From assembly GCA_000004985.1 (NCBI GenBank), contig GG738936.1: a stretch of DNA of 64,000 nucleotides; one strand, 5' to 3'. Of the stretch, positions 18,468-64,000 are shown in pieces. This DNA is from Naegleria gruberi. Lineage: Eukaryota. Within the stretch, counting starts at the first letter, position 1. Every line of letters begins with the position of its first letter. The position numbers were made by a program, and so were the translations under genes. Under the pieces are notes generated by a model. The model ran no database searches and was not told the origin of the DNA. It worked only from the letters and a program-made list of their open reading frames with translations.

Positions 18468-21026
18468 TTACATCCAATACATATTACCATCCTGTGCAGA
18501 ACCTGATTTCACTGACTGTTCATCATCAGTTGATGAGCTTGTTCCTGGTTGAGCAATTTCAAATCCAAGAGAAAAAGAACTGGAAGTTGAGCTCATTGTG
18601 GATTCTCTGCTTGATGGTTTCTCTGAAAGAATAGTTTTGATATTTTCCATGAATGATGTGTAGGCCAAATTGATGAGAATTAACTTGACAATGACTTCAA
18701 TCTTTTCAAATACATCAAAGTGAGCGAGGGAGGAAATTGCCTTCTTGGCCTCAGTGTTAAATGTTTGAATGGAGGAGCGAGGGAAATCAGAAAGATTGGA
18801 AATATTGTTTTGGTCAATTAGGTAGCTCTCTACAATCTTTTTGTGAAGTTTGGCTCTTTGTTGAGGTTTGTTTGTGAGCTTGTAAGTTTCCAATTTTTCA
18901 ATCATTGCCATGTATTTAGAGGCATTAGGAATTGGGCACAATTGTAAGAATCTTGATTTGAGATAGTCATCACTGATAATTCTATTAAAATCGAGAATTT
19001 TCTTCATTTCTTCTAATTTGGTTTCTTGATCTTGGAGTGATTGTTGAAGTTCATTTTCTTCACTCAAATTGATGGCAACAATTACAAAGGCATCACTAAC
19101 TTGGCCTTCTTTAATTAGCAATCTGACATTGTAAACTTTCAATTGGACTGGTAATTGTTTGGATGTTATGGAGAAGATGTTTGTTTTCCATATACCATTA
19201 TCGCTAATTTCAGCAAATTTCTGTAGCAACTCATCGAGAGGTGTTTCCTTAAAGAATTTGTCAATGGTATCATGGAGATAGTTGACTTGTTGCTGATTTT
19301 CATTACTGTCCACAAGCTTATTATCAAAATAACTATTAGTATTGACAATCAATCCAGTACTCTTTTCAACAATGGCAATAAACTCATTAATACTATTCAT
19401 GATGCAACGATTGGATTGTTCTTGAATTGAAGTTCTTTCAAGCATTTCTTGCATTGTATCCATGTCACTAACTAGCTTTTCTTGATTCTTTTTCAAACTG
19501 GCCAACATTTGATTAATCTTTGATGAGAGAGTACCAATTTCGTCGTGACCCAATTGAGGAATTGTCTTGTTAAAATCATTTCCACTCTCATAGAAATCTC
19601 TAACAGATTTGGATAATTTTAAAATTCTTCTCAATACTGATGATTCAATAAAGATGACAACGCCAGCTGACAATACCAATACGAAGAATGTCATGACAAA
19701 CCACACGACAAGGAAGGAAGCCATACCAACTTGGAATGAACTTCTTTGAATATCAGTTCTAAACACTACTGTCTTTCCACCTGTAATGTCATTGTACATT
19801 TGATAGGCAGCCATTCTTTCATTTTGAGAACCAGCTGAGAAGGAAGAGAACTTGTTAGTAATGGTCTTGGAGCATTGTCTTCCATGGAGAATATAATCCG
19901 AGTTACTGGAAGATTTTCCAATATCAATAACCTTCACAAGAGATGCAGCATCATTTGTCCAATCAGAGTAAACATTTGTACTCGAAATATTGGTTGGTAT
20001 CCATTCACTAGTGATAGCATCAAGAGAATCTGAGATTGCATTAGATGTTGACAACTTGAAAGCACTTGTCTCATATTCACTTTTCAGGTCATAGGTCGTA
20101 ACACAAAATTGAGTCCTCTCTGAGATGTCGAGCAGATAATCATAGGTATTATACTTGGCAAAGGTGAGCATACCAAATGATTCCAGTGAGTCATATCCTT
20201 GAATTGGCATTGCATTCACAAGAAGTACGTTTGATAAAATTGAGGAATAGTTGGAAACTGCTTGTTGTGATGTTTCACTTGTTGCCAATTCTGAAAGTTT
20301 CTTACTTGGTATCATTAATCCAATGTGTCTAGTCGATGGATTTTCCAAATTATTGATAAAGAATTTCCTATATTCATTCGATTGACCATCAACAGTTTCT
20401 TGATCTAGATTAGTCAACTCAGATGGTAATCCTTCAATTGATACACCTTTAAAACAATGAATTCCTCTTAGCATTGTTCCATTTAAATAGTAAAATAAGG
20501 CCATATTTACGTTAACTCTATTCAAATAATCACAATTCATATAATCTGACATGTATTGGTCAATTGTCTCTTGTGAAGCTCCATTTACCAACTCAGTTGT
20601 CGAATCAAACGATCCATATTCAAACGTACGATCTGACAATAGCTTTAAATCATCAAACAATGCTCTTGAAACTCTCCTAGAAGATTGAGTCGATTCCACA
20701 CGTTCAACATTATGAAATATCAAAAAGAATGAGGTCAATAAAATTGCCAAACAAAAGCACACCAACAATATGAACATGACAACCAACACTGAAATTGTCT
20801 TTAAACGTAATGATGAATGTTTCTTGAATATATTCTCTTGTTGCTGCGTCGTATCTGGTGCATTGTATTTAAAAGTTAAATTTGCAATTTCTTTCAACTC
20901 TATTTTCATTTCTTTTAATTCTTCCGAATTGCTATTATTATTATTAATGGATGGAGAATGCTGAAGAGATGTTGCGGAAGATGATGGAATTGATTCAACA
21001 ACTGAAAGGTTGAGTTGTTGCGTCAT
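18468..21026 (-). CDS. Receptor-like protein: TM1, an extracellular sensor domain of about 300 aa, TM2, a HAMP domain, a PAS-like region and a C-terminal RGS-like domain.
   Basis: An 852-aa uninterrupted ORF with a verified ATG. TM1 is ISVLVVMFILLVCFCLAILLTSFF. The extracellular region is Cys- and N-glycosylation-rich. TM2 is MASFLVVWFVMTFFVLVLSAGVVIFI. A HAMP signature follows immediately (RRILKLSKSVRDF...LGHDEIGTLSSKINQMLASL). The C-terminus resembles an RGS domain (FNRIISDDYLKSRFLQLCPIPNASKYMAMIEKLETYK...FDVFEKIEVIVKLILINLAYTSFMEN). Confidence 0.6.
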   Translation of the reverse strand: MTQQLNLSVVESIPSSSATSLQHSPSINNNNSNSEELKEMKIELKEIANLTFKYNAPDTTQQQENIFKKHSSLRLKTISVLVVMFILLVCFCLAILLTSFFLIFHNVERVESTQSSRRVSRALFDDLKLLSDRTFEYGSFDSTTELVNGASQETIDQYMSDYMNCDYLNRVNVNMALFYYLNGTMLRGIHCFKGVSIEGLPSELTNLDQETVDGQSNEYRKFFINNLENPSTRHIGLMIPSKKLSELATSETSQQAVSNYSSILSNVLLVNAMPIQGYDSLESFGMLTFAKYNTYDYLLDISERTQFCVTTYDLKSEYETSAFKLSTSNAISDSLDAITSEWIPTNISSTNVYSDWTNDAASLVKVIDIGKSSSNSDYILHGRQCSKTITNKFSSFSAGSQNERMAAYQMYNDITGGKTVVFRTDIQRSSFQVGMASFLVVWFVMTFFVLVLSAGVVIFIESSVLRRILKLSKSVRDFYESGNDFNKTIPQLGHDEIGTLSSKINQMLASLKKNQEKLVSDMDTMQEMLERTSIQEQSNRCIMNSINEFIAIVEKSTGLIVNTNSYFDNKLVDSNENQQQVNYLHDTIDKFFKETPLDELLQKFAEISDNGIWKTNIFSITSKQLPVQLKVYNVRLLIKEGQVSDAFVIVAINLSEENELQQSLQDQETKLEEMKKILDFNRIISDDYLKSRFLQLCPIPNASKYMAMIEKLETYKLTNKPQQRAKLHKKIVESYLIDQNNISNLSDFPRSSIQTFNTEAKKAISSLAHFDVFEKIEVIVKLILINLAYTSFMENIKTILSEKPSSRESTMSSTSSSFSLGFEIAQPGTSSSTDDEQSVKSGSAQDGNMYWM

Positions 21027-29247: not shown

Positions 29248-30359
29248 TTAATCGAACAATGGAAGACTCCAGAAATTGATTGGATCACAAGTTCTAGTGA
29301 GATTGTTCTTTTCCAAACCTTCAAGAGATTCCATATCTTCACTTGACAATTCAAAATCAAAGATCTTGCTATTTTCAATAATTCTTTCTTCCTTAGTTGA
29401 CTTTGGAATAACAATACATCCTCTTTGAGTAGACCACTTCAACAAGATTTGAGCAGGAGTCTTTCCTAACTTTTCAGCCAAAGACTTGACAGTTTGATTG
29501 TTAACAGGTGAACTTTCATTAAAGTGACCAAGTGGAGAATAAGCAACCAAAGCAATATCACCAAGAGCTTGCTTCAATTTACGTTGATTAAGGTATGGGT
29601 GACATTCAACTTGATTAGCAGCTGGCTTAATTCTGGCATAAGTCAACAAATCATAAACAAGAGCAATTGGGAAATTTGAAATACCAATTGACTTGACCAA
29701 ACCATCATCAACAAGTTTTTCCATTTCTTCCCATGTTTCTCTGAGTGGAACAGCTTCCATAGCAATCTTTCCATTTTCATCCTTTGGGAAAACATTTTCA
29801 TCCTTCTTAATATCATCACCAACATATTTGAAATTGAAAGGCCAGTGAATCAAGTACATGTCCAAATAATCTAACTTTAAATCACTCAAGGTTTGAAGAC
29901 AAGCCTTTCTAACATGTTCCTTCTTGTGGAAAGTATTCCAAAGCTTGGAAACAACATAAACATCGGAACGATTAAACTTCTTTTCAGTATTAAAGAGTCT
30001 ATCAAAGGTTTCACCAATTTCCTGTTCGTTTCTATAGATGGCTGCACAATCAATATGACGATAGCCTTGTTCGAGAGCAAATTCAACAGCACGTGAAACT
30101 TCTCCTGGAGCAGATAACCAAGTACCTTTTTATCAATATATTATTTATGTAAATATGTATATATGTATTGTTGAATAGAATATTATATTAATAATTGATC
30201 ATTATCATCACAATAATATTAATCATCATCACACAATATATATTCATATTAAAATAATGAATTTAATAAATTAAAATCAAGCTTACCTAAACCAAAGATT
30301 GGCATCTTGGTACCATTATTCAAAGTGATGGATTGATCGAGTGGAGTAACTTGAGACAT
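29248..30359 (-). CDS. Aldo-keto reductase (aldose reductase-like, AKR1 type), 2 exons.
   Basis: Exon 1 is 30287..30359 (MSQVTPLDQSITLNNGTKMPIFGLG). A 160-nt intron (30127..30286, GTAAGC...AAAAG) follows. Exon 2 is 29248..30126 (TWLSAPGEV...IDCAAIYRNEQEIGE...LDYLDMYLIHWP...). The classic AKR N-terminus and active-site region are present. Confidence 0.8.
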
Positions 30360-31759: not shown

Positions 31760-34700
31760 TTAATTTAGAATGAGATTATCATTGGAAGGGGTTGAATTTT
31801 TACAATTCGTTTCAATCTTGATTGGATCATCAACAGATTTGTGTGCTGATATTTTGTTCTTTGAAATGGTCAATCTATCACATTCGTCACCATAAATAGC
31901 AAAACTACCATTGGCAGATATTTCATTATCAATAATATCAGCTTCAAATTGTCTAACTTTGACTCCCATATTAGAATTGTTAATAATCTTATTTTCCTTG
32001 ATGGTTGCATATGCTTTTTGAACAATAATACCATCACTATTCTCGGTTATTTCATTCTTTTCAATGATTGGATTTGATTGTTCAACAACAATTATGCCCT
32101 GTTTAGCACATCCAAATATTCTATTGCCTACAATTGAAGGTGTTGCACCTTGTCTTATTTCAATACCAGAATAGACATTGGAAAGAATTTCATTTCCTTG
32201 GAAAATGAGAGTATTATCAATATCCTTTCCCTTAATTGAAACACCACTCTGACGATTGGAGTATATTTGATTGTTTCTAATGGTTGGATTAGAGTTTCTG
32301 AGTTCAAGACCAGCATAGGCGTTTTCATAAATTCTATTCTTTTCAACAGTTCCTCTACTCTTGGTAGCAATCAAAATACCACAAATACCTCCCTTGTAAA
32401 TTTCATTCTCAATGATATCTATATTACATTCATTTGATACTTCGATACCAGCCATGGTATTATCAAATATTTGATTATGCATGAGAGTGGCTTTACATTG
32501 GGCATTCACAACAATACCTGCTGCTTTTTGGCCCATAATAACATTCTTGGTTATTTTCACATCTTTACATTCCTTGAAGAGTTGAATACCTGAACTTTCA
32601 TTTCTGATAATTTCATTTTCTTGAACTGTTCCTGTAGATTGAATCATTAGCAGAGATTTCTTCTTTGAACCAGTGATGAGATTGTTAGTAATCTTGAGTT
32701 GAGATTTTTCAGCAACAATAGCATTTTCGTTCATAACAAATTTGCTGTTATGAATAAAAGCTTGAGAAGATCTAATTTCACAAGCAATACCTTCAGATTC
32801 TCTGAATTCAGAATTGACAATTTTGAGACTGGAATTTCTGGTTGCTATTGTGGAAAATCGGCTGAATTTACAATTCCTAATTTCACATTCAGCTCCATCA
32901 TCAAGTCTGATATGTAAGCCTTGTGATTTTGGATTTCCTCCATTTTGTTGAGGTGTAACAACAACATCAGCACTTTTTGCTTCCTTTGTTGCCTTGAAGA
33001 AAATATTCTCGAATATAATGTTAGAGCCAGCCTCTAACATGATACTACCAGCTTCTCCAAGTGTAATGATTGGATAAAGTATGTGAGCTTGTTTTTCCGA
33101 TTCTTCTCCAATGATATGTATCAGCTTATGGTTCATTTTGGTATTAATTCTAATTTTTTCATTACTATAAAGACCCATTCGCACTTGAATGGTAATCTTT
33201 TGTTTGAATGAATTGGAATTGTCAGAGTTTGATATTGGAACTGGTGTTTGTTTCATATTGACAATATGGTTGAGGGCTTCTGTAATGGAGCTGAAATCTC
33301 CCTTTCCTGTATAGTCAACTACAAATATATTGTCCATAGAGGTCTTTTGTTCAACAACAATTTCTTGTTCACTCTCATTCGATTCAATCATTGGAGTTGA
33401 TTCATCACTTGGTGGTTTTGAGGCAGTATTTGAGGCAACAGTTACATATCTTGGATGCTTACGAATAGACTTCAAAGGGCCATAAGGAGTTTCATCTCCA
33501 TTCAAGAAAACTTCAGCGAATGATTTCAAACATTTCCAATATTGGGCATGTTGAATAATTACTTGTCTGATAGCAACATTGGTGGCCTTTGATGGTGGTT
33601 TGATAGAAATTGGAGATGGAGGCAAGTTCAATAAACTTCTCAGAGAAGCAGTTGCACATGATGCTGTTACATCTGTCTTATATCCACCTTCGAGAGCTAA
33701 AACAATTTTACCACCTGCCAATTGTTTTAACATACCAATAATATGTTCATATCCACTTGGTGTTAAGGACATTCTTCTTCCCAAAATATCACCCTTGGCA
33801 GCATCAAAACCAGCTGACACAATGACCAAGTCAGGTGCAAACTCTGTACAAACAGGAATAATCAATTGTCTGAAAATGGCAATATAATCAGAATCACCAA
33901 AGGTAGCAGTGGATGGTATCTTATAGTCTTTTGGAGGGAGAGGTATGTTCAATGTGTAACCTTCACCCTTTCCGATACCAACTTCTTCTAATGAACCAGT
34001 TCCAGGGAAATAATTTTGCTCGAATCTGTGAATGGAAACATAGAGAATAGATGGATCATCCTCAAAAATTTCCTGTGTACCATTACCGTGGTGAATGTCA
34101 AAGTCAATGATGGCTACTCTACCAACAGATTTGAATTGTTGAGCTACACGAGCTGCTACAGCAGCATTGTTAAAGAAACAGAATCCCATTGGATCTTCTG
34201 TTTGAGCATGGTGACCAGGTGGACGTACAATAGCCATTCCGTTTTCCAATTCTCCATTCAATACCTTCTCAGTTAGTTTAATTACACCACCTGCTGCTAA
34301 TCTTGCTGCTTTAAGACTGAATTGATTAATTTGGATATCATGCTCGTTATCTTGCACGATACCTCTCAATAAATTATGGTTTGAAGTTGTAGGATTGAAT
34401 TGTCCTTTAAATTCAAAGAAATCATCAATATATTTTTCTGTATGGACCAGAGCAAGTTCTTGTTGTGTCACTTCTCTTGACTTCATAATTTCACATTCAT
34501 CCAACAAGTTGTGTTCTTGAATCATATTCCAAATATGACTAATACGAACTGGTGTTTCTGGTATTGGACCATCATGAAGACACATTCTAGCATCATATAA
34601 TAATCCTGTTTTCTTTGGTTGATATTTTTCATTGAGGGATTGATTTTGAGTTGATAATTCAATAGGCCCCAACACTATGGAAGATTTTTCAGTGGTTAAA

Positions 34701-35866
34701 TTATTCAATTTGTCAGAGTCAATGATTGTTATCAAGTGCTTGTTCTTTTCCACAAATTCTAAAGTATTTTGTCTTCCGTTCAAGAATGAGTCCATGTCTA
34801 CAATCTTTTCATCTTCGTTTTGTGCAGTTGGATTATTTTCAACCAGTAAAACTTTTGAATTATTTTTTCCAATTACAACTCTATCACAATATGTTTTCAA
34901 TTGATCAGATGAATCCAAATTCACAAAAATATTCTTTTTGGTGTTGGATGCAATTATAGACTCTAGAGATCCATCATTATCCTCTAATTTTCTCTTTTTC
35001 GATGAAGAATCTAATGAGTTCGAGCCTTCTGGATCTGAAGATTTCTTTGAATTATTTTCCTCAACGAATGGGTATGGAGCTAATTTCCAATCTCTGGCAC
35101 AATCATATAACCAATTCTTATCTACACGCTTAATTCCCCATTTGATCGATGTATCATATTTGGCACCAGCTGCAACTTTGTAAAGTAAATGAGTATTTTC
35201 CTGTGTCATATTACTGGAATATTTGCTTCCCATTGCTGCTATTAAATATTGCAATCTTGTTTTTTCTTTCTTTGGAAAACCAGATAAGGTAAAGTTCTGA
35301 AAAAGGAATGTAAAAAATATTAGTGCTATTGAATTATACTTACAAATCCTTCCATATCTGTAATTGGATAATCTTTCACGGGATAGTGGAGTGGATTTTG
35401 AATTTTCCTTCCAAATTTCTCAGTAATTACTAGAGGTTGAACACCATGAACAAGCATACAATCATCGAGCCAAAAACTAGTTACAATCGTTTTCTTTTCT
35501 TCGAGTGCCTTTGAAAATAAGCCACTAAACGTGTCACAATCTCAACTACTTACTCTATAGAAATTTTCTCCTCTCTGAACACTTGCCATCAAGTGTGTAA
35601 TATTACTCTTATACATGGTCACAACTTGTCCACCAAGTTTTTTGATAATTTCCCTGTAGAGTTCGGCCTCAGCTTCCTCATGTGTAAGTGGATCCACAAA
35701 GAATGTGCACCCTTCGAGAAATTCTGGCACATCTTCCATGTTTAGACCTGCAGCTGCGATTGGATTGGTAGTTCTGGTTTGTGGACGTTGTCTTCCTATC
35801 ATAATAATTAATGATCCAAGAAATAAGACCAACTTGCCAATGACATTAAAACAACTTACTTGACAT
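31760..35866 (-). CDS. Multidomain protein of about 1316 aa in 5 exons: two BRCT domains, a class II histone deacetylase domain and C-terminal parallel beta-helix (PbH1/CASH-like) repeats.
   Basis: Hand-spliced exons are 35860..35866 (ATGTCAA), 35554..35795, 35344..35508 and 31760..35296. The introns are 64, 45 and 47 nt, all with GTAAGT donors, and the phases are consistent. BRCT 1 reads FLEGCTFFVDP...ITHLMASVQRGENFYR...ALEEKKTIVTSFWLDDCM. BRCT 2 reads LSGFPKKEKTRLQYLIAAMGSKYS...WLYDCARDWKL. The HDAC domain carries RPPGHHAQ, IIDFDIHHGNGTQEIF and YVSIHRFE. The C-terminal third consists of repeated N.I..N...GI.. beta-helix units. Confidence 0.75.
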
Positions 35867-48353: not shown

Positions 48354-50492
48354 ATGCCAACTAACAATTCTAGTCCTTCTTCGTTGATGACAAATCAAGA
48401 TAGTCCAACTAGCGTTTCTACAGAATTAATGGAAGACGCAAATGGATCATCTTCTGTATCACCTCAAAATGTTGATCCAATGAATTCAAGGGATAGTTTT
48501 TTCCCTTTCCTCCCTTCAACATATCCCTCAAGATTACCAACAACCGTGACAGACATTTCTTCGCTTTACCTGAGAACTTTGGCATCGCATCCTCCATCGG
48601 TCATTGGTATGCTTGCAGCCATTAATAGTAATAATGCTCCTTTTTCCATTAATAATAATAATAACAACAATTCGCACGAATCAATTAATGTTGCTAATTT
48701 AGATGAACAACCGTTACAACAACTAGTTTCACCAAAACCAGAAGAAAAGGAGCTCTTTGATCTTTCTAAGCATGACATTATTCCTCCAACTATTACAACA
48801 GAAAATTGTGAAATTCCTCACAATTTTATTTGTCCAATCACTAAATTAATTATGTTTTCTCCTGTAAGAAATATGTATGGTAAGGTATATGAAAGAGAGA
48901 GCATTGATCAATGGTGGAAAACATTAAGTTCAAAACAACAACAATTAACAGATCCTTTAACGAATCAAGTAGTTTCTGACAAGGCACTTGTTGAAGATGT
49001 TGAACTTAAAAATCAAATTCAAGAATTTTTGAACCAAAATGCACATTTAAGATTTTCCATTAATGATTTATATTTCCCTAAACAAATTATTAGAGAAATG
49101 AAGGTTGCTATTGACAGTGAGAATTATGCAAAGATTTCACATTTACTTTCTCAATTCCCTGCTAATTTCTTTGTGCAAACTAAATTCCCTGTTCCTCCAC
49201 AATCTGCTCAAGGAAAAACCAAGAATGAAAAGGAAACATCAGTCTCTGTTTTTGATTGTCTTTATAGACGTTTTAAGACTGTTTTTGACTCTGTTAAAGA
49301 TGCTTCTCCATCTGATGTTCATTTTATGAATGATCCAATTATTGGATATGTTGTTAGACAATATTTAATTGTAAGAAACTATTTTATTGAAAGACAAAAG
49401 AAAAGTATTTCTAAAATAGAAGTTACTGAATTCAAGTCTGCAGAAAGTTCTATTTCAGAAGGTTTGAAAAATATTTTTGTTAACAGTGTAAGACTTTTCC
49501 CTAATGTATCCATTTTGGATTGGTTAGTTTCTATTGGTGCCTCAATTTCATCCACAAATCAATTTAAACAAAATGCATTCCATATGGCTTGTATGACAGA
49601 TCAAGTAGAAATTGCCAAGCACTTGTGTCACTTAAATAATTTGGTAATGACAAACAATGCTTCAAGTGTTAATATTGTTGAAGAAAGGTTATCAGATGAG
49701 GTTAAGAGAAAATGGAATGCTTTCTATTTAGCTATTTGGCATAACAGTCAAAAGATTATTGACTGGGTTGTAGATGATGCTCATTTGTCACAAAGATTCC
49801 TTTTAAGAAAACACAAATGCATGGTTAAGGATAAATCAAGTATCTATCATCCAATGAATGCTCTTAGTTTGGCAGCCTATAAGAAAAATATTCCATTGAT
49901 GGAAGTACTTATTAAGAAATTCTCATTTGAAGTCCCTGATGAAAAGTACCATCCAATTTATTGGTCATGCATTGCCAATGATTTGAATGGCTTCAAGTGG
50001 ATTTGTAATTATATTGAAACTAATATTCCTAATGGAGCTGAGGTTTTGAAATCACAGTTGAGAGCCATTAATGAAAGAGCATTCAAAAGATCCTTGATTC
50101 ATGCTATTGCTATGGAAGCTTCTGATGACATGATGGAATATTATCTCCAAAAATGCAAGGATTTAAATATTTTGGATAGTATTATTAATACTCAAGATAC
50201 CTTTGGAAACACAGCACTTCACTATGCTTGCGAAAAATCAAAGACAAAAACTCTTGCTATTCTTATCCAAGAAGGTATTGCTCACGAGTATGTGAACAGA
50301 CAAGGAAAGACTGCTAGTCAATGTTGTAAAACTGATGAAGACAGAGAAGCTATTCAAAAGGCTATTAAGGAAGAACGTGAATTATTGAGGACTGTTGCTT
50401 CTAGAGTTAAGGAACTTGAAAATGATGTATCTTTCCTTAAGAGAAAGATTTTAGAAATGGAAGAATTCCAAAAGAGAAGAAAGTTTGAATAA
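48354..50492 (+). CDS. U-box E3 ubiquitin ligase-like protein with C-terminal ankyrin repeats and a coiled coil. An Asn-rich N-terminal extension (47962..48387, in a different frame) may belong to the same gene.
   Basis: A U-box is present (PHNFICPITKLIMFSPVRNMYGKVYERESIDQWW...TDPLTNQVVSDKALVEDVELKNQIQEFL). Ankyrin repeats include FGNTALHYACEKSKTKTLAILIQEG. The C-terminus is a heptad coiled coil. The upstream ORF overlaps by 34 nt in another frame, which indicates an unresolved intron or a frameshift. Confidence 0.65.
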   Translation: MPTNNSSPSSLMTNQDSPTSVSTELMEDANGSSSVSPQNVDPMNSRDSFFPFLPSTYPSRLPTTVTDISSLYLRTLASHPPSVIGMLAAINSNNAPFSINNNNNNNSHESINVANLDEQPLQQLVSPKPEEKELFDLSKHDIIPPTITTENCEIPHNFICPITKLIMFSPVRNMYGKVYERESIDQWWKTLSSKQQQLTDPLTNQVVSDKALVEDVELKNQIQEFLNQNAHLRFSINDLYFPKQIIREMKVAIDSENYAKISHLLSQFPANFFVQTKFPVPPQSAQGKTKNEKETSVSVFDCLYRRFKTVFDSVKDASPSDVHFMNDPIIGYVVRQYLIVRNYFIERQKKSISKIEVTEFKSAESSISEGLKNIFVNSVRLFPNVSILDWLVSIGASISSTNQFKQNAFHMACMTDQVEIAKHLCHLNNLVMTNNASSVNIVEERLSDEVKRKWNAFYLAIWHNSQKIIDWVVDDAHLSQRFLLRKHKCMVKDKSSIYHPMNALSLAAYKKNIPLMEVLIKKFSFEVPDEKYHPIYWSCIANDLNGFKWICNYIETNIPNGAEVLKSQLRAINERAFKRSLIHAIAMEASDDMMEYYLQKCKDLNILDSIINTQDTFGNTALHYACEKSKTKTLAILIQEGIAHEYVNRQGKTASQCCKTDEDREAIQKAIKEERELLRTVASRVKELENDVSFLKRKILEMEEFQKRRKFE

Positions 50493-50511: not shown

Positions 50512-53273
50512 CTATACAATTTGGAATCTTCCTGTAACTCGTTTGTCTCCTAATGCCGAAGCACTTTCTCCTAGAACACTCAATATCTGAGTTCTGGCTT
50601 GATGAACTGATCCTTCATCAGCACCTTCTACAATCAAATATTGCTTTCTTTCTCCTTTCTGTGGTTTTGTTTCAGGTGGAATGTAAGTGCCTTTAATTTG
50701 AATCTTTGTGTTGGTGAAATGTTGGATACTATGAAGGCTATCCTTTTTGAGAACTTCAGAACGAGGTCCTCTTGGCCAATCATTAATTTCAACTTCAGTT
50801 CGGAAAAGACCATTGATATTTACAACTCCAGCCAAAATCATTTGAGAAAGCTCTTTTTCTTTTTGTTTTTCAGATATTGATGTATGTACAGTGAGGGCAG
50901 CAGCAAAGAGTTGAGCTCTTTGAATTGCCTTCTCTTCTTCTGTAATAGTATCATCCTTTTCAATATCCTTATAAACAGCATCAGCAGCCTTAGTTGCTCT
51001 ATCAACAACAGTTTCTTCTTTCTTTGATTTTTTCTTTTGAGATTTATCCTTCTTTTTGGTCTCATCAACTTCTTGAATATCAATTTGATCCAGTATAGTA
51101 TCATCGTTATTAGTAAGAGCATAAGAGAATGCCATCTGTTTCTTTTCTTCCATCTTTTGTTTTTCCTCCTTTTCATCAAATTTGTAACCTGTACCTACAA
51201 AACCAGGAAGTGCATTCTTCTTTTGACCTTGTACTAGACCTAAATTCCTCTTTGTAAGATAATTATCACAAAGTTTTTGTAAATCTTCAGGTACAGGATT
51301 ATTAGATTGTTTGAGAGCTTTAACCAAATCAGGAGCATATTTCTCTTCATCAGTAGAAATAAAGGTATAGGCAACTCCTTTCTTTCCAGCTCTGCCTGTT
51401 CTACCTACTTTGTGAATATAATCTTCGTAGTGATCTGGACAATTATAGTTAACAACAAGTCTAATACTTGGAACATCTAAACCTCTTGAACAAACACTGG
51501 TACCAACCATAATATTAAACTTTTGTGATTTAAAATCAGAAATAGTGCAATCTCTTTCTATTTGTTCCATACTACCATCCAGAGTACAAACATTTTCTCT
51601 GTAACCTGCTGATACTAAATCCTTATACAAGTCTCCAACGCCATTTTGTGTATCAACAAAAATAAGAATGCTAGATCCAAACTGACTCGAGTTAAATTTG
51701 TTACTCTACCTCTATTGGCGCACAACAAGTCAATGAGTCTTCCTGGAGTGCACACAATAATGTGAGCACCATTCTTCAATAATGCAATTTGTTCAGCAAT
51801 ACCAGCTCCTCCATAAACACAAGCTGTTTTAAGCATGAGTGGTGCTGAGAATTTTTCAATATCTGAATGAATTTGCATAGCCAATTCTCTTGTTGGAGCC
51901 ATCACAATTCCTATTGGACCATCTACAGTTTTGAGTGGAGGTTGATCTAAAACATGTCTCAACATTGGTAAAACAAATGCTAATGTTTTTCCACTACCTG
52001 TTTTAGCGATACCAATAATATTTCTTCCACTCATAATACATGGCAATGCCTGTGATTGAATAGCAAATGGTTTAGTATAACCATGTGTTTCCAATACTCC
52101 CAATATAGTATCATTCAAACCGCATTGAGTCCATGTTTTAACTGGAGGAGGAATATCATGACCGTGTACTTTGATATTACCCATTTCCTTACGAAGTTCT
52201 GCAATATCATTTTCACTCATATTAGCATATTCACGAGGAACTATGAAGAAATTCTTTCTAAATGGTAGATATTCCATTTTTGAATGATCAACTTGTTTTA
52301 AATCTTTCTTTGATTGCTTTTGGAATTCAGATAATCCCTCCAAATTTCTATTGGTAATATCATCTTTTGCAATAAAGTAACTATCTAAATCGACATCATC
52401 AGTGTCATCAGAGAATAAAACTTGTCCTTTTTGATTTCTAATTTCAGAAGAATTCAGGTCGGTATTTTCATTACTTAACGTACCGTTATCAATTTCTTTT
52501 GGTTTCTCTGATTGTTTTAATTCACTGTGAATACTTGACATGTATTTTTCAAGATCATCATCTTCATCATCAGACATGTTAGTATTTACATTCTCTTCTT
52601 CTTCCAAAAAACTCAACGAATTAGTTTGTTTTGTTGTTGTTTCTTCTTCATCATCGTCCATATTAAGAACACTTATTTTGATGTTATTATTTACAGTTTT
52701 TTTAGTTCCAAAAGAGAGAGGTTTCTTCACTGGCTTTGGTGGTGGAACAGGAACTTTTTGTTTCTTTTCTTCCTCCAATTTTTGAAGAGCTCCCATTTCT
52801 TTCTTCTTTTTCCAAGCTTCGAGTCTAGCCTTTTTCTTTTCATTTTCATCACTTGTTGTTGTTGTTGTATTGGTAGTATCGGATGTTGTTGTTGTTGTTG
52901 TAGTTGGTTTTGTATTATTAGATGAAGTGGTGGTGGTAGTAGCTGTTGTATTTAGTTGAGGGTTTGTATTGTTTGATGACTCTGAAGTCTTGTTTGTTTC
53001 TTGTTTATAATCATCATATGATCTTTTTAAATTATTACTTCTATCATCTGATCTATTGTACTGCCTGTTGTTATCGTTATAGCGGTATTGATGATCATCA
53101 TTTCGGGATGAACGATATGATGAAGAAGGTGGGCCGAAATTGTTATTATTAAAGGATGATGGATGTCTACTTCCCTCACTAGAATAATTTGAAGATCCCT
53201 CTCGTCTATAGCCTCTATGATCGTTGTGGTGATGTGATGAGTGATAACTATCTCGTTGTTGGTGGTTGGACAT
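50512..53273 (-). CDS. DEAD-box RNA helicase of the DDX46/Prp5 type, carried as two abutting ORFs with helicase motifs II and III absent. It may be disrupted (a pseudogene or an assembly artefact).
   Basis: ORF 51615..53273 has an RS/RD-like and acidic N-terminus, a Q-motif region, motif I AKTGSGKT, motif Ia PTRELA and motif TPGRL, and ends at RGRVTNLTRV. ORF 50512..51630 begins in another frame at SQFGSSILIFVDTQ (motif IV) and carries motif V TSVCSRGLDV and motif VI HRVGRTGRAG. About 95 aa expected between the two (VLDEADRMFD...SAT...) have no coding space in this sequence. Confidence 0.6.
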
Positions 53274-53601
53274 TTTTTTTAAAATAATTAATTTATTTTT
53301 AGTTCGTGTTCAACATTCAATGCTTTATTTTGATAATTTTCGAATCCAAATCTTAAACAAATTTACAAATAATGATGTTGAATGGTCCATCATAAATGTC
53401 AAATATGTAACTTAATGATTAGTGGTGATTTCCTGCAACTTCTCGATGAATTATTTCCCGCCATTTCAAGACCTTATTGAATCATTCTCAATCAAGACTA
53501 CACTGACCGTTAACGCAATTTCCCGCCTTCAAGTCTACGTTAAAATGGACCTTGAAAAAAATCAAAAATAACATTTTAAAAAAAATAGAACACACAACAC
53601 A

Positions 53602-54144
53602 ATGTCATCTTCATGGACAAAGCTTAGAAGATATCTCGCAGGAAAGCCCTCAAAGACGGGATTGCAAACTGATTCACTCCCGAATAGAAAAACGCCAATA
53701 GAATGTACTCTGGGGAAGATGATGATAAAGGTTAATCCAGATACTGGATCGTTAGAATATATGGGAGAAATAGGACAAGGAGAATATATAAAACTGGATC
53801 ACACAGATCTTCAAAATATTAAGGAGAGAATGGAAGAGTTAGAAGACGAGAATAGATTACTTAAATTAAAGAATGAAATTCTGTTAGATTTGCTGTCCTC
53901 AACGACATTGGACGCAAAATATATGGAACAAACTTTGTTAAAAATTAAGAATGAAGGATTCCATTCTATAAATAATCAGGAAGAAGAAGAGAAGGAAAAG
54001 AGGGAAAAGAAGGAGAGGAAGGAGAAGGAAAAGAAGGAAAAGAAGGAAAAGAAAAGAATGCAATCAACAAATGAACAAGTTGTAAAGAGGGATGTACCAA
54101 AGAGGCAAATATCATCAAGTCATGGTAATACAGTGCGAGCTTAA
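53602..54144 (+). CDS. Chibby-family-like coiled-coil protein.
   Basis: LEYMGEIGQGEYIKLD, then ELEDENRLLKLKNEILLDLLSSTTLDAKYMEQ, parallels human Chibby (ENGQWIAETG...LEEENNLLRLKVDILLDMLSESTAESHLMEK). The C-terminus is a KE-repeat (KEKKEKKEKK). The ATG was verified. Confidence 0.5.
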   Translation: MSSSWTKLRRYLAGKPSKTGLQTDSLPNRKTPIECTLGKMMIKVNPDTGSLEYMGEIGQGEYIKLDHTDLQNIKERMEELEDENRLLKLKNEILLDLLSSTTLDAKYMEQTLLKIKNEGFHSINNQEEEEKEKREKKERKEKEKKEKKEKKRMQSTNEQVVKRDVPKRQISSSHGNTVRA

Positions 54145-54255
54145 ATTTGTAAATAATAACTTTCCATTTTTGATTTTAAAATACTACTGTTCTTTCAATA
54201 CCTTTGAATCTTAATAAAATTAAGAAAAAACAAGCGATATATTATAAAAATTAAT

Positions 54256-57200: not shown

Positions 57201-58988
57201 TTAAATGATTGGATGAATTCTTAGCTGCTTCTGATATTGACAAACTATGATTGCTCATTTTCTCTTCACAAGTATCAGCATTATTGCTACGACTATTATT
57301 TGGGAATGTGCTATAGTCATATAAAAACATGGTACTATCAAATGTATACATATCTCTATTAGGTTGAGCACATTTAACAAACATTGGACATGTGAGAAGG
57401 AACTTATCATGCGAATATGGTATTAAATCTCTTGGTGCTTGTTTTAACTTTAAATCAACTTCACCATCCATGTTTGCTGTAGTAACATAGGATATGCCAT
57501 TTTCATTCGCTGATTGAATGAGTACACAATCTGCTGGTATTTCATCATTCTCTTCAAGTTTAATAATATCACCAACCTTAATATCCTTAGATTTAATCTT
57601 TATAAGGAAATCATCTTGTCTTGAATTATTAATAGATGATGTATTAAGATACTTTCTATTAACAACAGTAAATGTTTTAAAATTAGACTTGTAATCATTG
57701 TAGAATCTCTTCAAATCATCATATAATGCCTTAACAGCTGTAATGAGAAGAGCAACAATGAGTGGAGCCCAAGTAGTAATAGGATTAACAGGTGATACTT
57801 CACTCCATAATTGTAAACAAGCAATAGCTAAAAAGTACCTATTCATGTTAGAAGTAAGGAATTGTGTAGTGATATTATGTGGTATGAAGGTAAATAGTGT
57901 ATACTTAGAGTTGGAGATTTCATTGTTAGGGTAATAATATTTATACTTGGTTTTGAGCTCCTTATAAGGATGTGTTGTGGCATTGAGAGAGGCGCTATGT
58001 TTTGGATTGTTGGTTATTAATCTTTGATGATTATTCTGTTCAACATTTGAATGTGTTCTTACTATTCTTTCTCTATCAAAATAGACTGGATTGAACCATG
58101 ATCTTGGACTGTTGAAATGTTACACACATAATTGTTATTAGTAGTAATAAATAAATGATTATAAAGTTATTAAGGAATATTATCAACAATAAAACTTACA
58201 TGATATGGAAAATAATAAGGTATCTTAAAAAGTAGTTGTAGACATAGTAATAGATCAAATATAAAATAAACTTCATCTTCTTTGTGGTATACTTTGTATC
58301 CATTTCAATGGACTTGAAAACATCAACACATTCAGAGTTCTCTGATCTCATACTTGAATTATTATTAGGAGTAACATTATTAGATGAAGCATGTGTAACT
58401 AATAATCGAGGTGGTGAATTAGCCGTAGATGTTAAAGCAGCTGAGGTAATAGCAGCAGTAGCAGTTGAGGATGAAGCGCCTTGTACTGAAGAAGATGAGT
58501 GTTCATAATGTTGTCGGTAGGTTCTTCTTGTNGTTGTCTTGTAGGTAGTAGTGGTTGTAGTCTTTGAACTCTTTTCATAAGAACCTTGCTGTTGTGAGGA
58601 GGATGCAATTATAGCTGTGGACGGTGAAGATGATGANNNNNNNNNNNNNNNNNNNNNNNNNNNNNNNNNNNNNNNNNNNNNNNNNNATGGATATTCTACT
58701 TTGAGCTGCCATTGTAGAAGTTGTAGTGTTATTGTTTGGATTTCCACTATAACTATTACTAACACTAACATTCCGATATGTAGCTATTTGACCATTCTTA
58801 TTATTATAATTGTTATATTTTGTGTAATGTTGAGTAGTTGTATGGGGAGAATTAAGGCTGTTTGTTGGAACCATTTGATTATTGTTAGAATTATTGTTGT
58901 TGTTGTTTGAAGCCTTGCCAGTGTAATTATTATACGACTCTTCCATCATCTCTGTCGATGTGGGAAGAGCGTCGTTGGGCCTATTCAT
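54256..58988 (-). CDS. P4-type ATPase (phospholipid flippase), with at least 2 exons and an assembly gap in the N-terminal low-complexity exon.
   Basis: The downstream exon 54256..58108 carries the P4 N-terminal motif SNSKYTLFTFIPHNITTQFL, TM1 NRYFLAIACLQLW, the phosphorylation site DKTGTLTEN, the hinge GDGQNDIPMIQKAHVGVGIAG, and ten TM segments. It joins in phase 2 to the upstream exon 58200..58988 (start MNRPNDALP, Asn/Ser/Thr-rich) through a 91-nt GTAAGT...CAACAG intron (58109..58199). An alternative GTATAC donor near 58283 is also in frame. Confidence 0.8.
58617..58686. other. Assembly gap (a run of N), with an additional single N at 58531.
   Basis: 70 consecutive n characters lie inside the Ser/Asn-rich 5' exon of the P4-ATPase. 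The reading frames on either side differ, so the gap length is unknown. Confidence 0.95.
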
Positions 58989-59664: not shown

Positions 59665-60474
59665 TGATGTGTACATATTGAGAGGTCTTGAATCCTTATT
59701 AATACATGATTCAATTACTCCTTTTTAATCATACCTTATCACCTTATTAAATCTATCCGATTTTACTGAACACTTTGAATAAGAAATTTTAAATCTATTG
59801 ATACGGAGACACATTCCACCAACTGATGATCATCATTTAAATAAAAATTAAGTTTATTCAATTAGTTAGCTAATCACTATTGGATTTTTTGGGGTCCAAA
59901 GATTTTAAAACAATGCATGCTTGCTGCATGTTAATTTGAAACCTATTTTAAAATTCTAAAGAAAAATTCAAAAAAACAAGAACCCAACAGTCATGGATGA
60001 TAACACCAACTTGACTCAACGAACAATAACGTACAAAATATTGAATGTGGAAGAATTTTTACAACACGCGTGGAAGGAAAAACAGAACAGAGAAGGACAG
60101 AAATGAATCCAAGAAATACTTTGAAATAATAAAAAATGCACAGAAAAACAATAAAGCGATAGAGTTTTAAGGAAAGCAAGATACAAGGGACATTAATAAA
60201 CATTACAATTTATGTTAAGCCAGCAAGATACTGATTACATCTTTAATTTTGCTCTACTGCAATAAAATGCAATTTTGTCTGCATTTCAGTTAAAGGTTAT
60301 TGGATTCTTCTTAATATTTTAACCTACCTTATCACCATATTGAAACTACAATTTCTTCTGAACATTCCACTGATGATCACGCTTCCAGCCTTTTGATCAT
60401 CATTTTCAATTTTTGTAAAGAGATATTTGACGAGTTGGAGATGATCAATTGAACTTGAGGATCATCAGTTCACA

Positions 60475-61875
60475 ATGAAAATTGATGAGTTAACCAACAA
60501 AATCAGTAGAAAAAAAATGTCATCTCCTTCACAACAACAACAATTACATACAGTTTTAATAACAGGTGGATGTGGTTGTATTGCCCAACACTTAACAAAG
60601 GAATTATTATTAAATCATGAAGAATTAAATATTGATAAAATTATTTTACTTGATGTTCAACGTGAATGGACTCCTTTCTGGCATGTTTACAATAATTCTA
60701 ATACTATTAATAATACTACTACTATTGAATCTAATAATGATGATAATTCTAATAATAATTCTAATTCTAATAATAATATATGGAAATATCCAAGTTTAGA
60801 AATTGAAAAGGAAAAGATAAAATTCTATCAAATTGACATGTGTAATGAAAATAAATTAAATGAATTATTTTCGCAATTAATATCAGAATATAAAAATTTA
60901 ACAACAATATTTCATGTCATGTCAGCAATATTATTATGGTCACCACAAATGACAGATTTGGAAATATTAAATGTACAAATTACAAATCAATTATTAACAT
61001 TATCATTTAAATATTCTGATTATATTAAAAATTTTATATATACTAGTTCAGGTAATGTTTATTATAAAACATTTTCAGAAAATAAAAATTTTACAAGTGA
61101 AGATGAATTTCAAATCATTGAAAAAAATGAAAAATTTGAAATTTTAAATTCAAAAATTAATTTTCCAAATAATACACCATTAAATGTTGAATATAATTAT
61201 ATCATTACAAAAAGAAAAGCACATAAATTAGTAATAGAAAGACCATTTAAAGAAAATCAAAAATTAAATTCACTCGTATTAACACTTTGTATGACTATAT
61301 ATGGTGAAGGTGATCAAAATACTTTAAATTTAATTCAATCAAATAGAACTAATTTAGATATATCTGCAAAAGGTCATTCTTTATATGCAGGTAATGCTGC
61401 ACATGCTCATATTTTAGCATTTAAACAACTTTTAAATAATCCAAATATGGTAAGAGGAATGACATTTTCAGTACATGAAAATAATTTTGGACAATTATAT
61501 TTTAAAGCCTTGAGAGGTATTATGAAAAGTTTAACTAAAAATGATGAAAAATATTCAGAAAATAATACTCAAAAAATTCCAATTATATTCATGTATTTAA
61601 TTTGTTATTTTTTTATTATTTATAATTATATAATTTATTTATTAAATTTAATTTTACCATTTAAATTTATTAAAAAATTATATTTATATCCATTAGTTAC
61701 TAAATTTGTAATTGATGTTACTTATTTAAATAGATATGATGATTTTGATTTGAAAAATATTGAAAAATATTTAAATTATAAACCAAAATATAAAAGTGAA
61801 CAAGCCTATGATAGAATTGCACATTATTTAAAATCATTAGAAAAATTAGGTAAAATTAAATTACCAAAAATGTAA
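60475..61875 (+). CDS. NAD(P)-dependent 3-beta-hydroxysteroid dehydrogenase/NSDHL-like epimerase-dehydratase family protein with a C-terminal TM.
   Basis: A Rossmann motif VLITGGCGCIAQHL is present. The catalytic YxxxK-type region is SLYAGNAAHAHILAF. There are Asn-rich inserts, and the C-terminal hydrophobic segment IPIIFMYLICYFFIIYNYIIYLLNLILPF is typical of ER-anchored sterol dehydrogenases. The ATG at 60475 was verified. Confidence 0.7.
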   Translation: MKIDELTNKISRKKMSSPSQQQQLHTVLITGGCGCIAQHLTKELLLNHEELNIDKIILLDVQREWTPFWHVYNNSNTINNTTTIESNNDDNSNNNSNSNNNIWKYPSLEIEKEKIKFYQIDMCNENKLNELFSQLISEYKNLTTIFHVMSAILLWSPQMTDLEILNVQITNQLLTLSFKYSDYIKNFIYTSSGNVYYKTFSENKNFTSEDEFQIIEKNEKFEILNSKINFPNNTPLNVEYNYIITKRKAHKLVIERPFKENQKLNSLVLTLCMTIYGEGDQNTLNLIQSNRTNLDISAKGHSLYAGNAAHAHILAFKQLLNNPNMVRGMTFSVHENNFGQLYFKALRGIMKSLTKNDEKYSENNTQKIPIIFMYLICYFFIIYNYIIYLLNLILPFKFIKKLYLYPLVTKFVIDVTYLNRYDDFDLKNIEKYLNYKPKYKSEQAYDRIAHYLKSLEKLGKIKLPKM

Positions 61876-62692
61876 ATATTTTAAATAATTTAAAAATATT
61901 ATACTCTATTTAAATTCATTGTACAATATATCCATCATCAAAATAAACAAATAAATTATTATTATTATTATAATCAAATCATACTGCAATAATTTACTAT
62001 TATTATCATCAAACCGTTCATTAATGAATTTCAAACTTTCCCAATAAAGTTATTGAAACTTTAAATAGTCCGTTATAATCATCATACTCATTAATAATAC
62101 TACATGTCACTAATCAAAAGAAGAAGAATAAAAAAACAAATAAAAACATCATCATCATCAATTAATAACAAATCAAATGGGTAATGCTTTTGTTGTTAGA
62201 TCAAGAACACTCTCATCAGAAAGAGAAAATTACTACGGAGACGAAGTATATGAACCTAACAATAATAACAATAATAATTCAACAAATAATAATAATAACA
62301 ATTCAACGAAGAATAAGAATAGACAACGTATAGCAAATAATCAACCAACATCATCAACTCCATCATCTCCAACAACTAAACAATCATCAAATAATAATAA
62401 TACAAAATACTAATACTAACAATAATGAAGTAAATAATAGTAAAAATGTTAATAATAATAATCAACAATCATCCCTAGATTCTAATAATGTTTCTAATAA
62501 TAATAATAATAATAATAACAATACAATAACATCATCAACAATCACAACATCAATACCAATACAAACACAAAATTCCATAGAAAGATCATCCTCTACAATA
62601 ACCACTACTAGTACAACAACAACAACAACAACAACTCTGTTATTACATCATCAACACAACAACATTTACAATTATTACAACAAGTAGATGAA

Positions 62693-64000
62693 ATGTATAA
62701 AGAAATTGAAGCCTTTTCACAAGTTTCACCAGAATATAAAATTGGAATTTATAATTTATATAAAAAGATTAAAAAAAGATATCAATCTAATAATAGTATT
62801 GCAACACCCAATGAAATATCTTTGAAAAAACATTCCATTAGAATTGGTTCACCTTTACATTTTTATAAATATTTTAATGTACAATTAAAATTTGTAAAGG
62901 AAATGATTTATCAAGAATATTTAAATGATTTGGAAAATAATTTAACAAATATGGAAAATAATGAAGAAGAAGAAATTCCAAGTATGGAAGAATATTTTTC
63001 ACAAATTCCATCTAATGAAATTAAATTTAAAAAACCTTTAAAAGTAAAATTAATAATTTCAGATTTAAATCAACCTAAATTAGCAAGTAAAATGGCAAGT
63101 ACAGTAAATTCATTTGTAAATGTATTTTCCCAATTTGGATGGGTACATACTGCATTTAGTATTTCTAATTTAAAATTTGATTGGGTTAAAAGTGAATATT
63201 GTGAAACAGGTGATGTTAAAGGTACTTCATGTTTATTAGCAATTACTGTTAAGGAAATTGAATATTTAAATGAATTAGAAAATTGTTTAAAAATAGTATG
63301 TTTTTTTTTAATTTAATTTTTAATTTTTAATATATTTTAATTAATTTATTTTTTATAATTTCATAACTTTAATTAATTATTTATTAAAATATAATTAAAA
63401 TATAATTAAATAATTAAATAATTAATTAAATAATAATTAATTAATTAAATAATAATTAAATATAGTTAAGTGAAGAAGTATCAAAATGGAATAGAGAATA
63501 TTCATATGGAAGTGTAACTAATGATAAAAAATTACATTCTAAAAAAGTAGCAAATTGTCAAGACTTTACAATTTACATGTTACAACAAATTGGAGTTAAA
63601 GATTTAAAATTTGAAAATACAAGTATTGGAGATTATTTAGAATCAGTATTTAATAAAGGATTAATAGATATAGTATTTACTACAAATAAGGAATTTAGAG
63701 ATAAATATAATTTACTATTTAAAGAAAATAATATAAATAGAATAATTGATAAAAAACATACATTTCCTACACATAAAGATTTAGATTTATTTGTACATGA
63801 TTTTTTTAAAGTAGATTCAACATTTGAATCAACAGAAGAATGTCAATTATTAAAAGCCTTTGATAGAGGTTTTTGGTTAAAATATAGAAAATCATGTCAA
63901 ACGTCATCTTCATTTGATGATACTATTAGAAATGAACCTTTACATTTAGAAAATGAACATACTCATCATTTGGAAATTAATTGTCCATTTGGTGATCCAC
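62693..64000 (+). CDS. PPPDE/DeSI-like peptidase domain protein. Two exons are visible and the gene continues beyond the window.
   Basis: Exon 1 is 62693..63295 and ends at a GTATGT donor. A 170-nt AT-rich intron (63296..63465) follows, and exon 2 starts at 63466 in phase 0. His-containing motif 1 is FGWVHTAFSISNLKFDWVKSEYCETG. The Cys motif ANCQDFTIYMLQQIGV parallels the PPPDE NCNHFS...L motif. An upstream low-complexity ORF, 62177..62413, may belong to the same gene. Confidence 0.5.

Follow-up and report, generated by a model that had tools for sequence, protein, structure and literature searches.

The closest described relatives of the gene analyzed here are the Prp5/DDX46 orthologues of two other Naegleria species, N. 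lovaniensis C9374_013380 (P0002, 972 aa) and the N. fowleri FDP41_013554/Logan SRR29240419 protein (P0003 cluster). The N. lovaniensis orthologue matches human DDX46 (PDB 6Y50, 6Y5Q, and 7EVO; 17S U2 snRNP) at E=1e-192 and yeast Prp5 (PDB 4LJY and 7OQB) at 2e-111, and it matches DDX46 better than DDX42, DDX5/17, or DDX23 (PDB scores of 646 bits for DDX46, 391 for DDX42, and 377 for Prp5). Both congeneric genes are single-exon, like the gene described below; unlike it, both carry the full ASFVVLDEADRMFD...LVMFSATFPR...LLELLGKYNKPN segment in one frame. What is established in yeast and human leads one to expect that intron-containing eukaryotes cannot do without Prp5/DDX46; yeast Prp5 also plays a part that needs no ATP, and its requirement for ATP is bypassed when Cus2 is missing.

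The window, a 64-kb stretch of DNA from Naegleria gruberi NEG-M, contains a Prp5/DDX46 locus on its minus strand. DDX46 and PRP5 are the top database matches of the window gene, which on sequence grounds is a member of the DDX46/Prp5 orthologous group and nearer to DDX46/Prp5 than to other DEAD-box subfamilies; an earlier reading of the same DNA from its letters alone (the sequence-only reading) had made this identification, which is borne out by the top matches and by the PDB scores of the orthologue. Amino acid identity to the orthologues from N. lovaniensis and from N. fowleri is 66 to 72% on both sides of the junction described below, and because the same divergent Chibby neighbour is found in N. 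gruberi, N. lovaniensis, and N. fowleri, the locus is anchored as the orthologous one. A C-terminal KH-like domain is common to the window gene and the human DDX46/yeast Prp5 family. The features of the locus are as follows.

53602..54144, plus strand: Chibby-family gene, divergent upstream neighbour of the DDX46 locus
51615..53273, minus strand: upstream reading frame, 552 aa, with an N-terminal region of low complexity, plus motifs Q, I, Ia, GG, and Ib of RecA1
51673..51686, minus strand: deletion junction, 14 nt (GTCAGTTTGGATCT), from alignment to the orthologues
51622..51686, minus strand: annotated 65-nt "intron" (GTCAGT...TATAAG) of the XP_002668937.1 model
50512..51693, minus strand: open frame downstream, out of register with the upstream ORF, 393 codons and a stop, with motifs IV, V, and VI and a basic tail
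about 50614-50799, minus strand: KH_12 domain in the basic tail, downstream frame

The upstream ORF reads ...TPGRLIDLLCANRGRVTNLTRVS and then continues, from 51680 running down, through 21 out-of-frame codons (LDLAFLFLLIHKMALETCIRI) to a TAG (51615-51617), a stop 21 codons past the junction that keeps RecA1 and RecA2 from lying in one continuous frame. The downstream frame, open from 51693, reads NSSQFGSSILIFVDTQNGVGDLYKDLVSAGY... to its stop at 50512. In the first ORF the Pfam DEAD profile is matched at positions 2-119 of 167 and no further; in the second frame Helicase_C is matched at positions 13-110 of 110, and there is also a match to KH_12 (PF23469, E=1.9e-8). The helicase motifs present are these.

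52041-52082, minus strand: motif Q, RecA1, in ORF 51615..53273
51984-52007, minus strand: motif I (AKTGSGKT), RecA1
51879-51896, minus strand: motif Ia (PTRELA), RecA1
51807-51818, minus strand: motif GG, RecA1
51729-51749, minus strand: motif Ib (TPGR), RecA1
51652-51669, minus strand: motif IV (ILIFVD), RecA2, downstream frame
51550-51585, minus strand: LDGSMEQIERD, RecA2, downstream frame; motif IVa LHG reads LDG
51472-51501, minus strand: motif V (TSVCSRGLDV), RecA2, downstream frame
51385-51414, minus strand: motif VI (HKVGRTGRAG), RecA2, with K in place of a near-invariant R (99% conserved)

Motif II (D-E-A-D, Walker B) is absent, the Pfam DEAD match ending before it and the segment being deleted relative to the orthologues, and motif III (S-A-T) is missing inside the same 286-nt deletion. 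The sequence-only reading had described motifs Q, I, Ia, and Ib as intact in ORF 51615..53273, motifs IV, V, and VI with the C-terminal tail as lying in a shifted frame, and motifs II and III as lost; all of this was confirmed, the first part with motif GG in addition, the second by a frame open from 51693 to 50512, and the third by the limits of the Pfam match and the orthologue alignment. Measured against human DDX46, the window copy has no equivalent of residues about 526-620, the region that holds motifs II and III and in which RecA1 ends and RecA2 starts. Since motifs II and III are absent and the frame is shifted, the window copy cannot be an active DEAD-box ATPase, and the ATPase activity by which the U2 snRNP is remodelled and the branch site proofread is predicted to be lost.

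The deletion was delimited by DNA alignment to two intact, intronless congener genes, those of N. lovaniensis (L001:3001-5919) and of an N. fowleri type (L002:2660-5689), against which the window shows gaps of 36+250 = 286 nt (95 codons + 1 nt). The last unambiguous codon on the left is CGA (Arg, 51687-51689) and the first on the right is AGC (Ser, 51670-51672); between these conserved flanking codons lie 300 nt in the orthologues from N. lovaniensis and from N. fowleri and 14 nt in the window. By tblastn, the left block ends at N. lovaniensis residue 489 and the right block starts at residue 586. Gone with the 286 nt are motifs II and III, along with the final third of RecA1, the linker between the two domains, and RecA2's first strand-helix. 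These alignments establish both deletion and frameshift, and they put exact figures on an earlier estimate of about 95 missing amino acids and a change of frame; that no room is left for a hidden exon also stands, with 14 nt alone between the homology blocks. The junction itself exists as had been proposed, but not near 51690, its real span being 51673-51686.

The junction of the 286-bp deletion runs ...ACTCGAGTCAGTTTGGATCTAGCATT.... Its 14-nt string can be read either as the left-hand V-S-F(TT-) or as the right-hand (S)-Q-F-G-S, and because the string fits both readings, there may be microhomology of as much as about 8-9 nt at this point. The junction contains no N run, ambiguity symbol, or other gap marker, so the consensus was built across it; the draft scaffold does have a 50-N gap (58637-58686) and a single N (58532), 5-7 kb away. 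XhoI and GGATCT hybrid-like sites at the junction were considered as a possible cloning scar and are attributed to chance, as by our own estimate ~0.4 such sites are expected per 30 nt.

The same locus and DNA are represented in public databases by XP_002668937.1/EFC36193.1 (NAEGRDRAFT_82293, UniProt D2W436), an N. gruberi "predicted protein/RNA helicase" of 898 aa that is identical to both window frames on either side of the junction. This model cuts out 51622-51686 as an intron and joins ...NLTR to DLVSAGY..., which hides the frameshift and drops motif IV. The excised stretch has GT...AG ends and its removal restores the frame; read in the other frame it is SSILIFVDTQNGVGDLYK, a sequence conserved both in N. 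lovaniensis and in N. fowleri that includes motif IV. Because the stretch is conserved coding sequence with a helicase motif, the annotated intron is evidently a gene-model patch and not an ancestral intron. Its donor (GTCAGT) and GC content (35%) are unlike those of local introns: the real introns at 30126-30286 and 58109-58199 have 15% GC with a GTAAGC donor and 20% GC with a GTAAGT donor, respectively, and GTAAGT is the commonest donor among the ORF-joining candidates in the window. XP_002668937.1 is labelled an ordinary RNA helicase though it has neither a DEAD nor a SAT motif, because the frameshifting deletion was bridged by a fictitious intron. The presence of this intron in the public annotation was not part of the sequence-only reading.

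Apart from the deletion, both halves of the gene look like those of an intact one. The 393 downstream codons, which offer 185 one-step nonsense targets, contain no further stop or frameshift (P[no nonsense] = 0.046 at 5% neutral divergence). pN/pS is 0.19/0.71 in the left half and 0.17/0.76 in the right half, dN/dS against N. lovaniensis is about 0.1, and there are 16 gruberi-specific changes versus 21 on the sister lineage, with no overall acceleration. At RecA2 columns at least 90% conserved, gruberi-specific changes number 5 versus 0 on the sister lineage, a difference that is not significant (p=0.06); in the LHG to LDG and HRxGR to HKxGR replacements of RecA2, gruberi alone departs from residues at least 95% conserved. 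With the halves otherwise intact and no excess of gruberi-specific changes, the lesion is either very recent or artefactual, and the earlier description of the deletion as recent is upheld by the open frames, the low dN/dS, and the 16 versus 21 changes. Pseudogene decay or relaxed selection was rejected, as there are no added lesions and no acceleration, and an excess limited to RecA2 conflicts with an intact ORF under neutral decay.

Contrary to the expectation of a functional paralogue elsewhere, no second intact DDX46 copy or paralogue turned up in the collections of proteins and contigs searched. The annotated N. gruberi proteome likewise yielded no second copy, the window gene being the only Prp5/DDX46 found in it, and no intact N. 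gruberi DDX46 allele or fragment was present in the collections searched, which hold almost no N. gruberi besides the reference. Exact-protein look-ups with the 552-aa ORF, the downstream products of 372 and 352 aa, the public model, and the neighbours of 712 and 727 aa returned no independent contig; the Chibby neighbour did have an exact match, on an ENA metagenome contig that ends 717 nt before the junction. An exhaustive HMMER search with the downstream frame gave the public model itself as the sole near-identical match. Chimeric queries made of gruberi flanks and an N. lovaniensis middle, a weak search in which the matches listed were of 292-590 and 114-266 aa, found identities of at most 69% and none Naegleria-like, and a JGI metagenome scan for close relatives had a best identity of 64%, again with none Naegleria-like. 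A literature search found no paper mentioning Naegleria with Prp5 or DDX46.

Most likely overall, the locus represents either a dead allele of recent origin or an error of the draft assembly, hidden by an invented intron, and not new biology. Our best reading, held with slightly better than even confidence, is that it is a real null allele, produced by the 286-bp deletion, in a heterozygous lab strain. The internal deletion would have hit the single-exon Prp5/DDX46 locus very recently; a short direct repeat around GTCAGTTT, where microhomology is proposed, may have given rise to it through slippage or end-joining. The resulting frame shift would stop translation after 21 aberrant codons, and the product would be a 552-aa protein consisting of the N-terminal region and a partial RecA1, incapable of ATP hydrolysis, or, more likely, the mRNA would be degraded. 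In a clonally propagated, heterozygous lab strain the null allele would presumably be heterozygous; the work would fall to a putative intact allele carried by the homologous chromosome, and the haploid consensus assembly would have happened to show the dead one. N. gruberi has been reported to be heterozygous, and Naegleria to be mainly heterozygous diploid with ploidy variation (PMC9928731). Indel polymorphism exists at the locus: an ENA metagenome, ERR1078381 of PRJEB11402, contains an N. gruberi genotype that is near-identical to the window and differs from it by 3-nt and 2-nt indels and 1 SNP in 1.75 kb.

A less probable but substantial alternative is that the NEG-M gene is intact and the 286 bp were lost during cloning in a plasmid or fosmid, or when the consensus of the 2010 Sanger draft was built, after which the gene predictor covered the loss with the 65-nt intron. 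An otherwise flawless gene, constrained like its intact orthologues, is exactly what such an artefact predicts, and the expected indispensability of Prp5/DDX46 in a genome whose window contains real introns, the draft quality of the scaffold, with its 50-N gap and isolated N, and the lack of a second copy in the annotated proteome all point the same way. Against this, neither a gap nor an ambiguity symbol marks the junction, the coding sequence here is unique and offers no repeat that could collapse, and a collinear, same-orientation deletion requires a consensus built from deleted clones alone, which is uncommon at the coverage of the NEG-M draft, presumably about 8x Sanger. The sequence-only reading had offered a pseudogene or an assembly collapse; a repeat-driven collapse has nothing to support it in unique coding sequence, and a deletion artefact at the level of clone or consensus is possible.

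It is very unlikely that the lesion is real, homozygous, and tolerated, leaving N. gruberi with an ATPase-dead protein as its only Prp5/DDX46. The product would then be the 552-aa fragment or, if the 65 nt are spliced, an 898-aa protein lacking motifs II, III, and IV. Such a product could serve only as a scaffold, needing no ATP, for the recruitment of the U2 snRNP, or a substitute helicase, e.g., a DDX42-like one, could take over. The ATP-independent role of yeast Prp5 fits this idea, as do the frame-restoring GT..AG ends and the absence of another DDX46-type N. gruberi protein from the collections searched, but the splice interpretation is countered by the atypical donor and GC content, and RecA2 would lose a core strand along with motif IV. 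Similarly, although LDG, HKxGR, and the 5 versus 0 changes at conserved RecA2 columns are specific to gruberi, that excess reaches only p=0.06, rates are not raised overall, and one would expect decay of motifs Q, I, Ia, Ib, V, and VI in a protein that neither binds nor hydrolyzes ATP; N. lovaniensis and N. fowleri, moreover, have kept the full enzyme. It is exceedingly improbable that the 95 lost codons lie at another site and are brought in at the RNA level, by trans-splicing or from a distant exon, since this idea has only the absence of the segment in its favour, whereas 14 nt between the homology blocks leave no space for intron halves, the two halves are in different frames, the orthologues are single-exon, and tblastn of the missing N. 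lovaniensis segment against the whole 64-kb window found nothing (best E=0.75), which rules out a relocated exon, an inversion, or trans-splicing within it.

The N. gruberi reference proteome is widely used as the "free-living excavate" in comparative work on the spliceosome and the last eukaryotic common ancestor; motif-based surveys could mis-score Naegleria as having a degenerate Prp5, and surveys that trust the annotation could overlook the non-functional state of the locus as assembled. If the null allele is real, a heterozygous null of an essential gene, in a clonal strain that has long been cultured and is probably polyploid, would be of modest interest to Naegleria genetics; were it homozygous, which is unlikely, it would bear on the dispensability of the Prp5 ATPase for splicing. 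Should the window gene be the sole copy, a case to which we give very little credence, an intron-containing eukaryote would splice without an ATPase-competent Prp5/DDX46, and LDG and HKxGR would be early signs of that shift.

Synteny differs on the downstream side of the gene, where a DNA_pol_A gene is the neighbour in N. lovaniensis as well as in N. fowleri, and an ankyrin/U-box gene in N. gruberi.

The gene under study is a minus-strand DEAD-box helicase of Naegleria gruberi NEG-M whose conserved motifs are divided between two reading frames, as follows:

51615..53273, minus strand: upstream open reading frame (ORF), with a low-complexity N-terminus and then motifs Q (GYTKPFAIQSQALP), I (AKTGSGKT), Ia (PTRELA), GG, and Ib (TPGRLID)
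51693 to 50512, minus strand: downstream frame, open from 51693 and ending at 50512, reading NSSQFGSSILIFVDTQNGVGDLYKDLVSAGY..., with motif IV, motif V (TSVCSRGLDV), motif VI (HKVGRTGRAG), and a basic tail

The upstream ORF ends in ...RGRVTNLTRVS followed by 21 aberrant codons and TAG, and matches the Pfam DEAD profile only at positions 2 to 119 of 167; the downstream frame matches Helicase_C (13-110/110) and a KH_12 domain. A sequence-only reading had described a helicase lying in two frames without its DEAD and SAT motifs, and the ORFs, the Pfam matches, and alignment to congeners all agree with it; the feature is real in the assembled sequence and was sensibly interpreted.

A protein search with the fused halves returned as its top match the public N. 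gruberi gene model P0001, a 898-aa "predicted protein" (XP_002668937.1 / EFC36193.1 / NAEGRDRAFT_82293 / UniProt D2W436; 96% identity, 100% coverage), followed by the N. lovaniensis orthologue (972 aa), a Logan-assembled N. fowleri-type protein (1009 aa) that shares a cluster at ≥90% identity with N. fowleri FDP41_013554, and several thousand DDX46/PRP5 proteins from across the eukaryotes. Against known structures, the intact N. lovaniensis orthologue matched DDX46 (6Y50/7EVO, 1e-192) ahead of DDX42 (1e-115) and yeast Prp5 (2e-111), and a divergently transcribed Chibby gene lies directly upstream of the helicase in 3/3 Naegleria species. Given this family assignment, the KH_12 tail, and the shared Chibby neighbor, the locus is the orthologous Prp5/DDX46 and not a stray paralogue. 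The gene downstream of DDX46 is an ankyrin/U-box gene in N. gruberi (48354-50492, plus strand) and a DNA polymerase A-family gene in N. lovaniensis and N. fowleri; gene order is thus conserved on the 5′ Chibby side but breaks off directly 3′ of the helicase.

The genes of N. lovaniensis (L001:3001-5919) and of the N. fowleri type (L002:2660-5689) each consist of one uninterrupted ORF and carry RASFVVLDEADRMFDLGFGPQVM...RQLVMFSATFPRQLEALAKK...GGRSVACENIKQYVEIYNDDSTKFLRLLELLGKYNKPNTSILIFVDSQ. In a three-way DNA alignment with these, the window is short by 36+250 = 286 nt; in the tblastn matches, homology on the left extends to N. lovaniensis residue 489 and resumes on the right at residue 586. 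In the window, 14 nt (GTCAGTTTGGATCT) separate the Arg codon CGA (51687-51689) from the Ser codon AGC (51670-51672), versus 300 in the orthologues, so the loss is 95 codons plus one base, in agreement with the earlier estimate of about 95 amino acids. The lost span aligns with about residues 526-620 of human DDX46; in DEAD-box structures generally, this stretch comprises the DEAD and SAT strands, the last part of RecA1, the linker, and the opening strand-helix of RecA2. Neither trans-splicing nor a displaced exon is tenable within this window, since 14 nt cannot contain an intron or exon, as the sequence-only reading had also held, and tblastn of the missing segment found no match across the 64 kb (best E=0.75).

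P0001 connects ...VTNLTR to DLVSAGY... and regains the frame by removing the 65 nt of 51686..51622 (GTCAGT...TATAAG). Two verifiable introns nearby were used for comparison:

30126-30286: aldo-keto reductase intron, whose removal restores GLG|TW
58109-58199: intron upstream of the P4-ATPase ORF

The 65-nt "intron" is an annotation patch concealing the lesion, because in the alternate frame it encodes conserved motif IV (SSILIFVDTQNGVGDLYK, matching SILIFVDSQNSAGDLFK in congeners), its GC of 35% is coding-like (15% and 20% in the nearby introns), and the local introns have the donors GTAAGC and GTAAGT, the latter being the most frequent donor when every GT..AG candidate in the window that joins ORFs is counted. 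If the segment were ever spliced out, motifs II, III, and IV would all be missing from the product. The main value of these results is that they correct the N. gruberi Prp5/DDX46 entry, where the reference annotation masks the lesion.

Compared with N. lovaniensis, pN/pS is 0.19/0.71 in the left half and 0.17/0.76 in the right half, with synonymous sites saturated; both halves are under strong purifying selection. With 117 DDX46 orthologues as the outgroup, 16 replacements were specific to N. gruberi versus 21 on the lovaniensis+fowleri lineage (p=0.5). None of the 185 single-base routes to a stop in the 393-codon downstream frame has been taken, for which the chance without selection is 0.29 if neutral divergence is 2% and 0.046 if it is 5%. 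Because of this purifying selection, the lack of excess replacements, and the open downstream frame, the deletion is either very young relative to the species split or not biological; if it is real, the same evidence upholds the earlier view that it is recent. At columns ≥95% conserved, N. gruberi alone has LDG for LHG, HKVGR for HRVGR, I for V, and V for I; the His of LHG and the first Arg of motif VI (HRxGRxGR), replaced by Asp and Lys, are both about 99% conserved. Of about 120 DDX46 orthologues, two of them from congeners, only that of N. gruberi has LDG (51576-51578) and HK (51409-51411), and at RecA2 columns ≥90% conserved the N. gruberi-specific changes stand at 5 versus 0 (p=0.06). Neutral decay would take about 10% divergence, at odds with the intact ORF; we read these oddities as lineage-specific change older than the lesion, or as chance.

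Read as a continuation of the left-hand side, the junction is CGA GTC AGT TT- (R-V-S-F), where N. lovaniensis has R-A-S-F and human R-V-T-Y; read as right-hand sequence, it is AGT CAG TTT GGA TCT AGC (S-Q-F-G-S-S), the human counterpart being Y-Q-E-S-G-S ahead of V-I-I-F-V-D. Should both hold, the lost segment would have been flanked by a direct repeat of 8-9 nt (about AGTCAGTTT). Repeats of this kind are a textbook mark of slippage or of microhomology-mediated joining, either of which may have occurred here, in the amoeba itself or during cloning in E. coli.

The locus is a broken copy of a well-known gene, most likely a recent null allele or else an error of the draft. We lean modestly toward a heterozygous null allele. 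The junction consensus is clean with no gap symbol, and the region is unique sequence, leaving nothing for the previously suggested assembly collapse to act on. N. gruberi is reported to be heterozygous, and Naegleria to be for the most part heterozygous diploid, with varying ploidy (PMC9928731), which also favors a real allele. An ENA metagenome contig (ERZ929261 / ERR1078381, PRJEB11402; no papers mentioning this project were found) matches 52403-54156 at 99.7% and stops 717 nt short of the junction. Its DDX46 N-terminus has one more Ser codon than the window, near 53238; there is also an intergenic indel of 2 nt at 53318 and one SNP at 53464, and its Chibby protein is identical to that of the window. 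The contig represents an independent N. gruberi genotype, nearly identical to the window, from a public read set, and small indels segregate at the helicase locus, which we likewise count for a real allele.

Set against that allele, an assembly or cloning artefact is a lesser but substantial possibility: the gene is otherwise perfect and is expected to be essential, and this part of the scaffold is of draft quality, with defects 5-7 kb off:

58196..58771, minus strand: ORF, an apparent exon upstream of the P4-ATPase (flippase) gene, containing a single N at 58532 and a 50-N scaffold gap at 58637-58686

An artefact is also favored by the absence of a second copy; the functional paralogue that had been expected elsewhere was not found in the annotated proteome or the collections searched, where protein matches were confined to bands tied to query length (661-1049, 292-590, and 114-266 aa). 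Shorter queries missed the known N. lovaniensis orthologue, so these negatives do not cover all lengths. Explanations of other kinds appear improbable, and a lesion both homozygous and tolerated more improbable still.

The remaining window holds ordinary AT-rich eukaryotic genes (GC 0.22-0.37), among them the P4-ATPase, an HDAC fusion, LRR phosphatases, and the ankyrin/U-box protein. The fusion, a minus-strand ORF of 1164 aa (31760-35254), joins a BRCT fragment and a complete histone-deacetylase domain (E=3e-94) to an extended right-handed beta-helix / NosD-like stretch (E=6e-55), an unusual set of domains for an HDAC. Another minus-strand ORF (18468-21026, 852 aa) has the bacterial-type sensor modules CHASE4 and HAMP; Pfam found no output domain within it, and it may continue into another exon. 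Toward the window end (60000-64000) GC falls to 0.22, and a candidate GTATGT...AG intron of 170 nt at 63296-63465 has a GC of just 3%.
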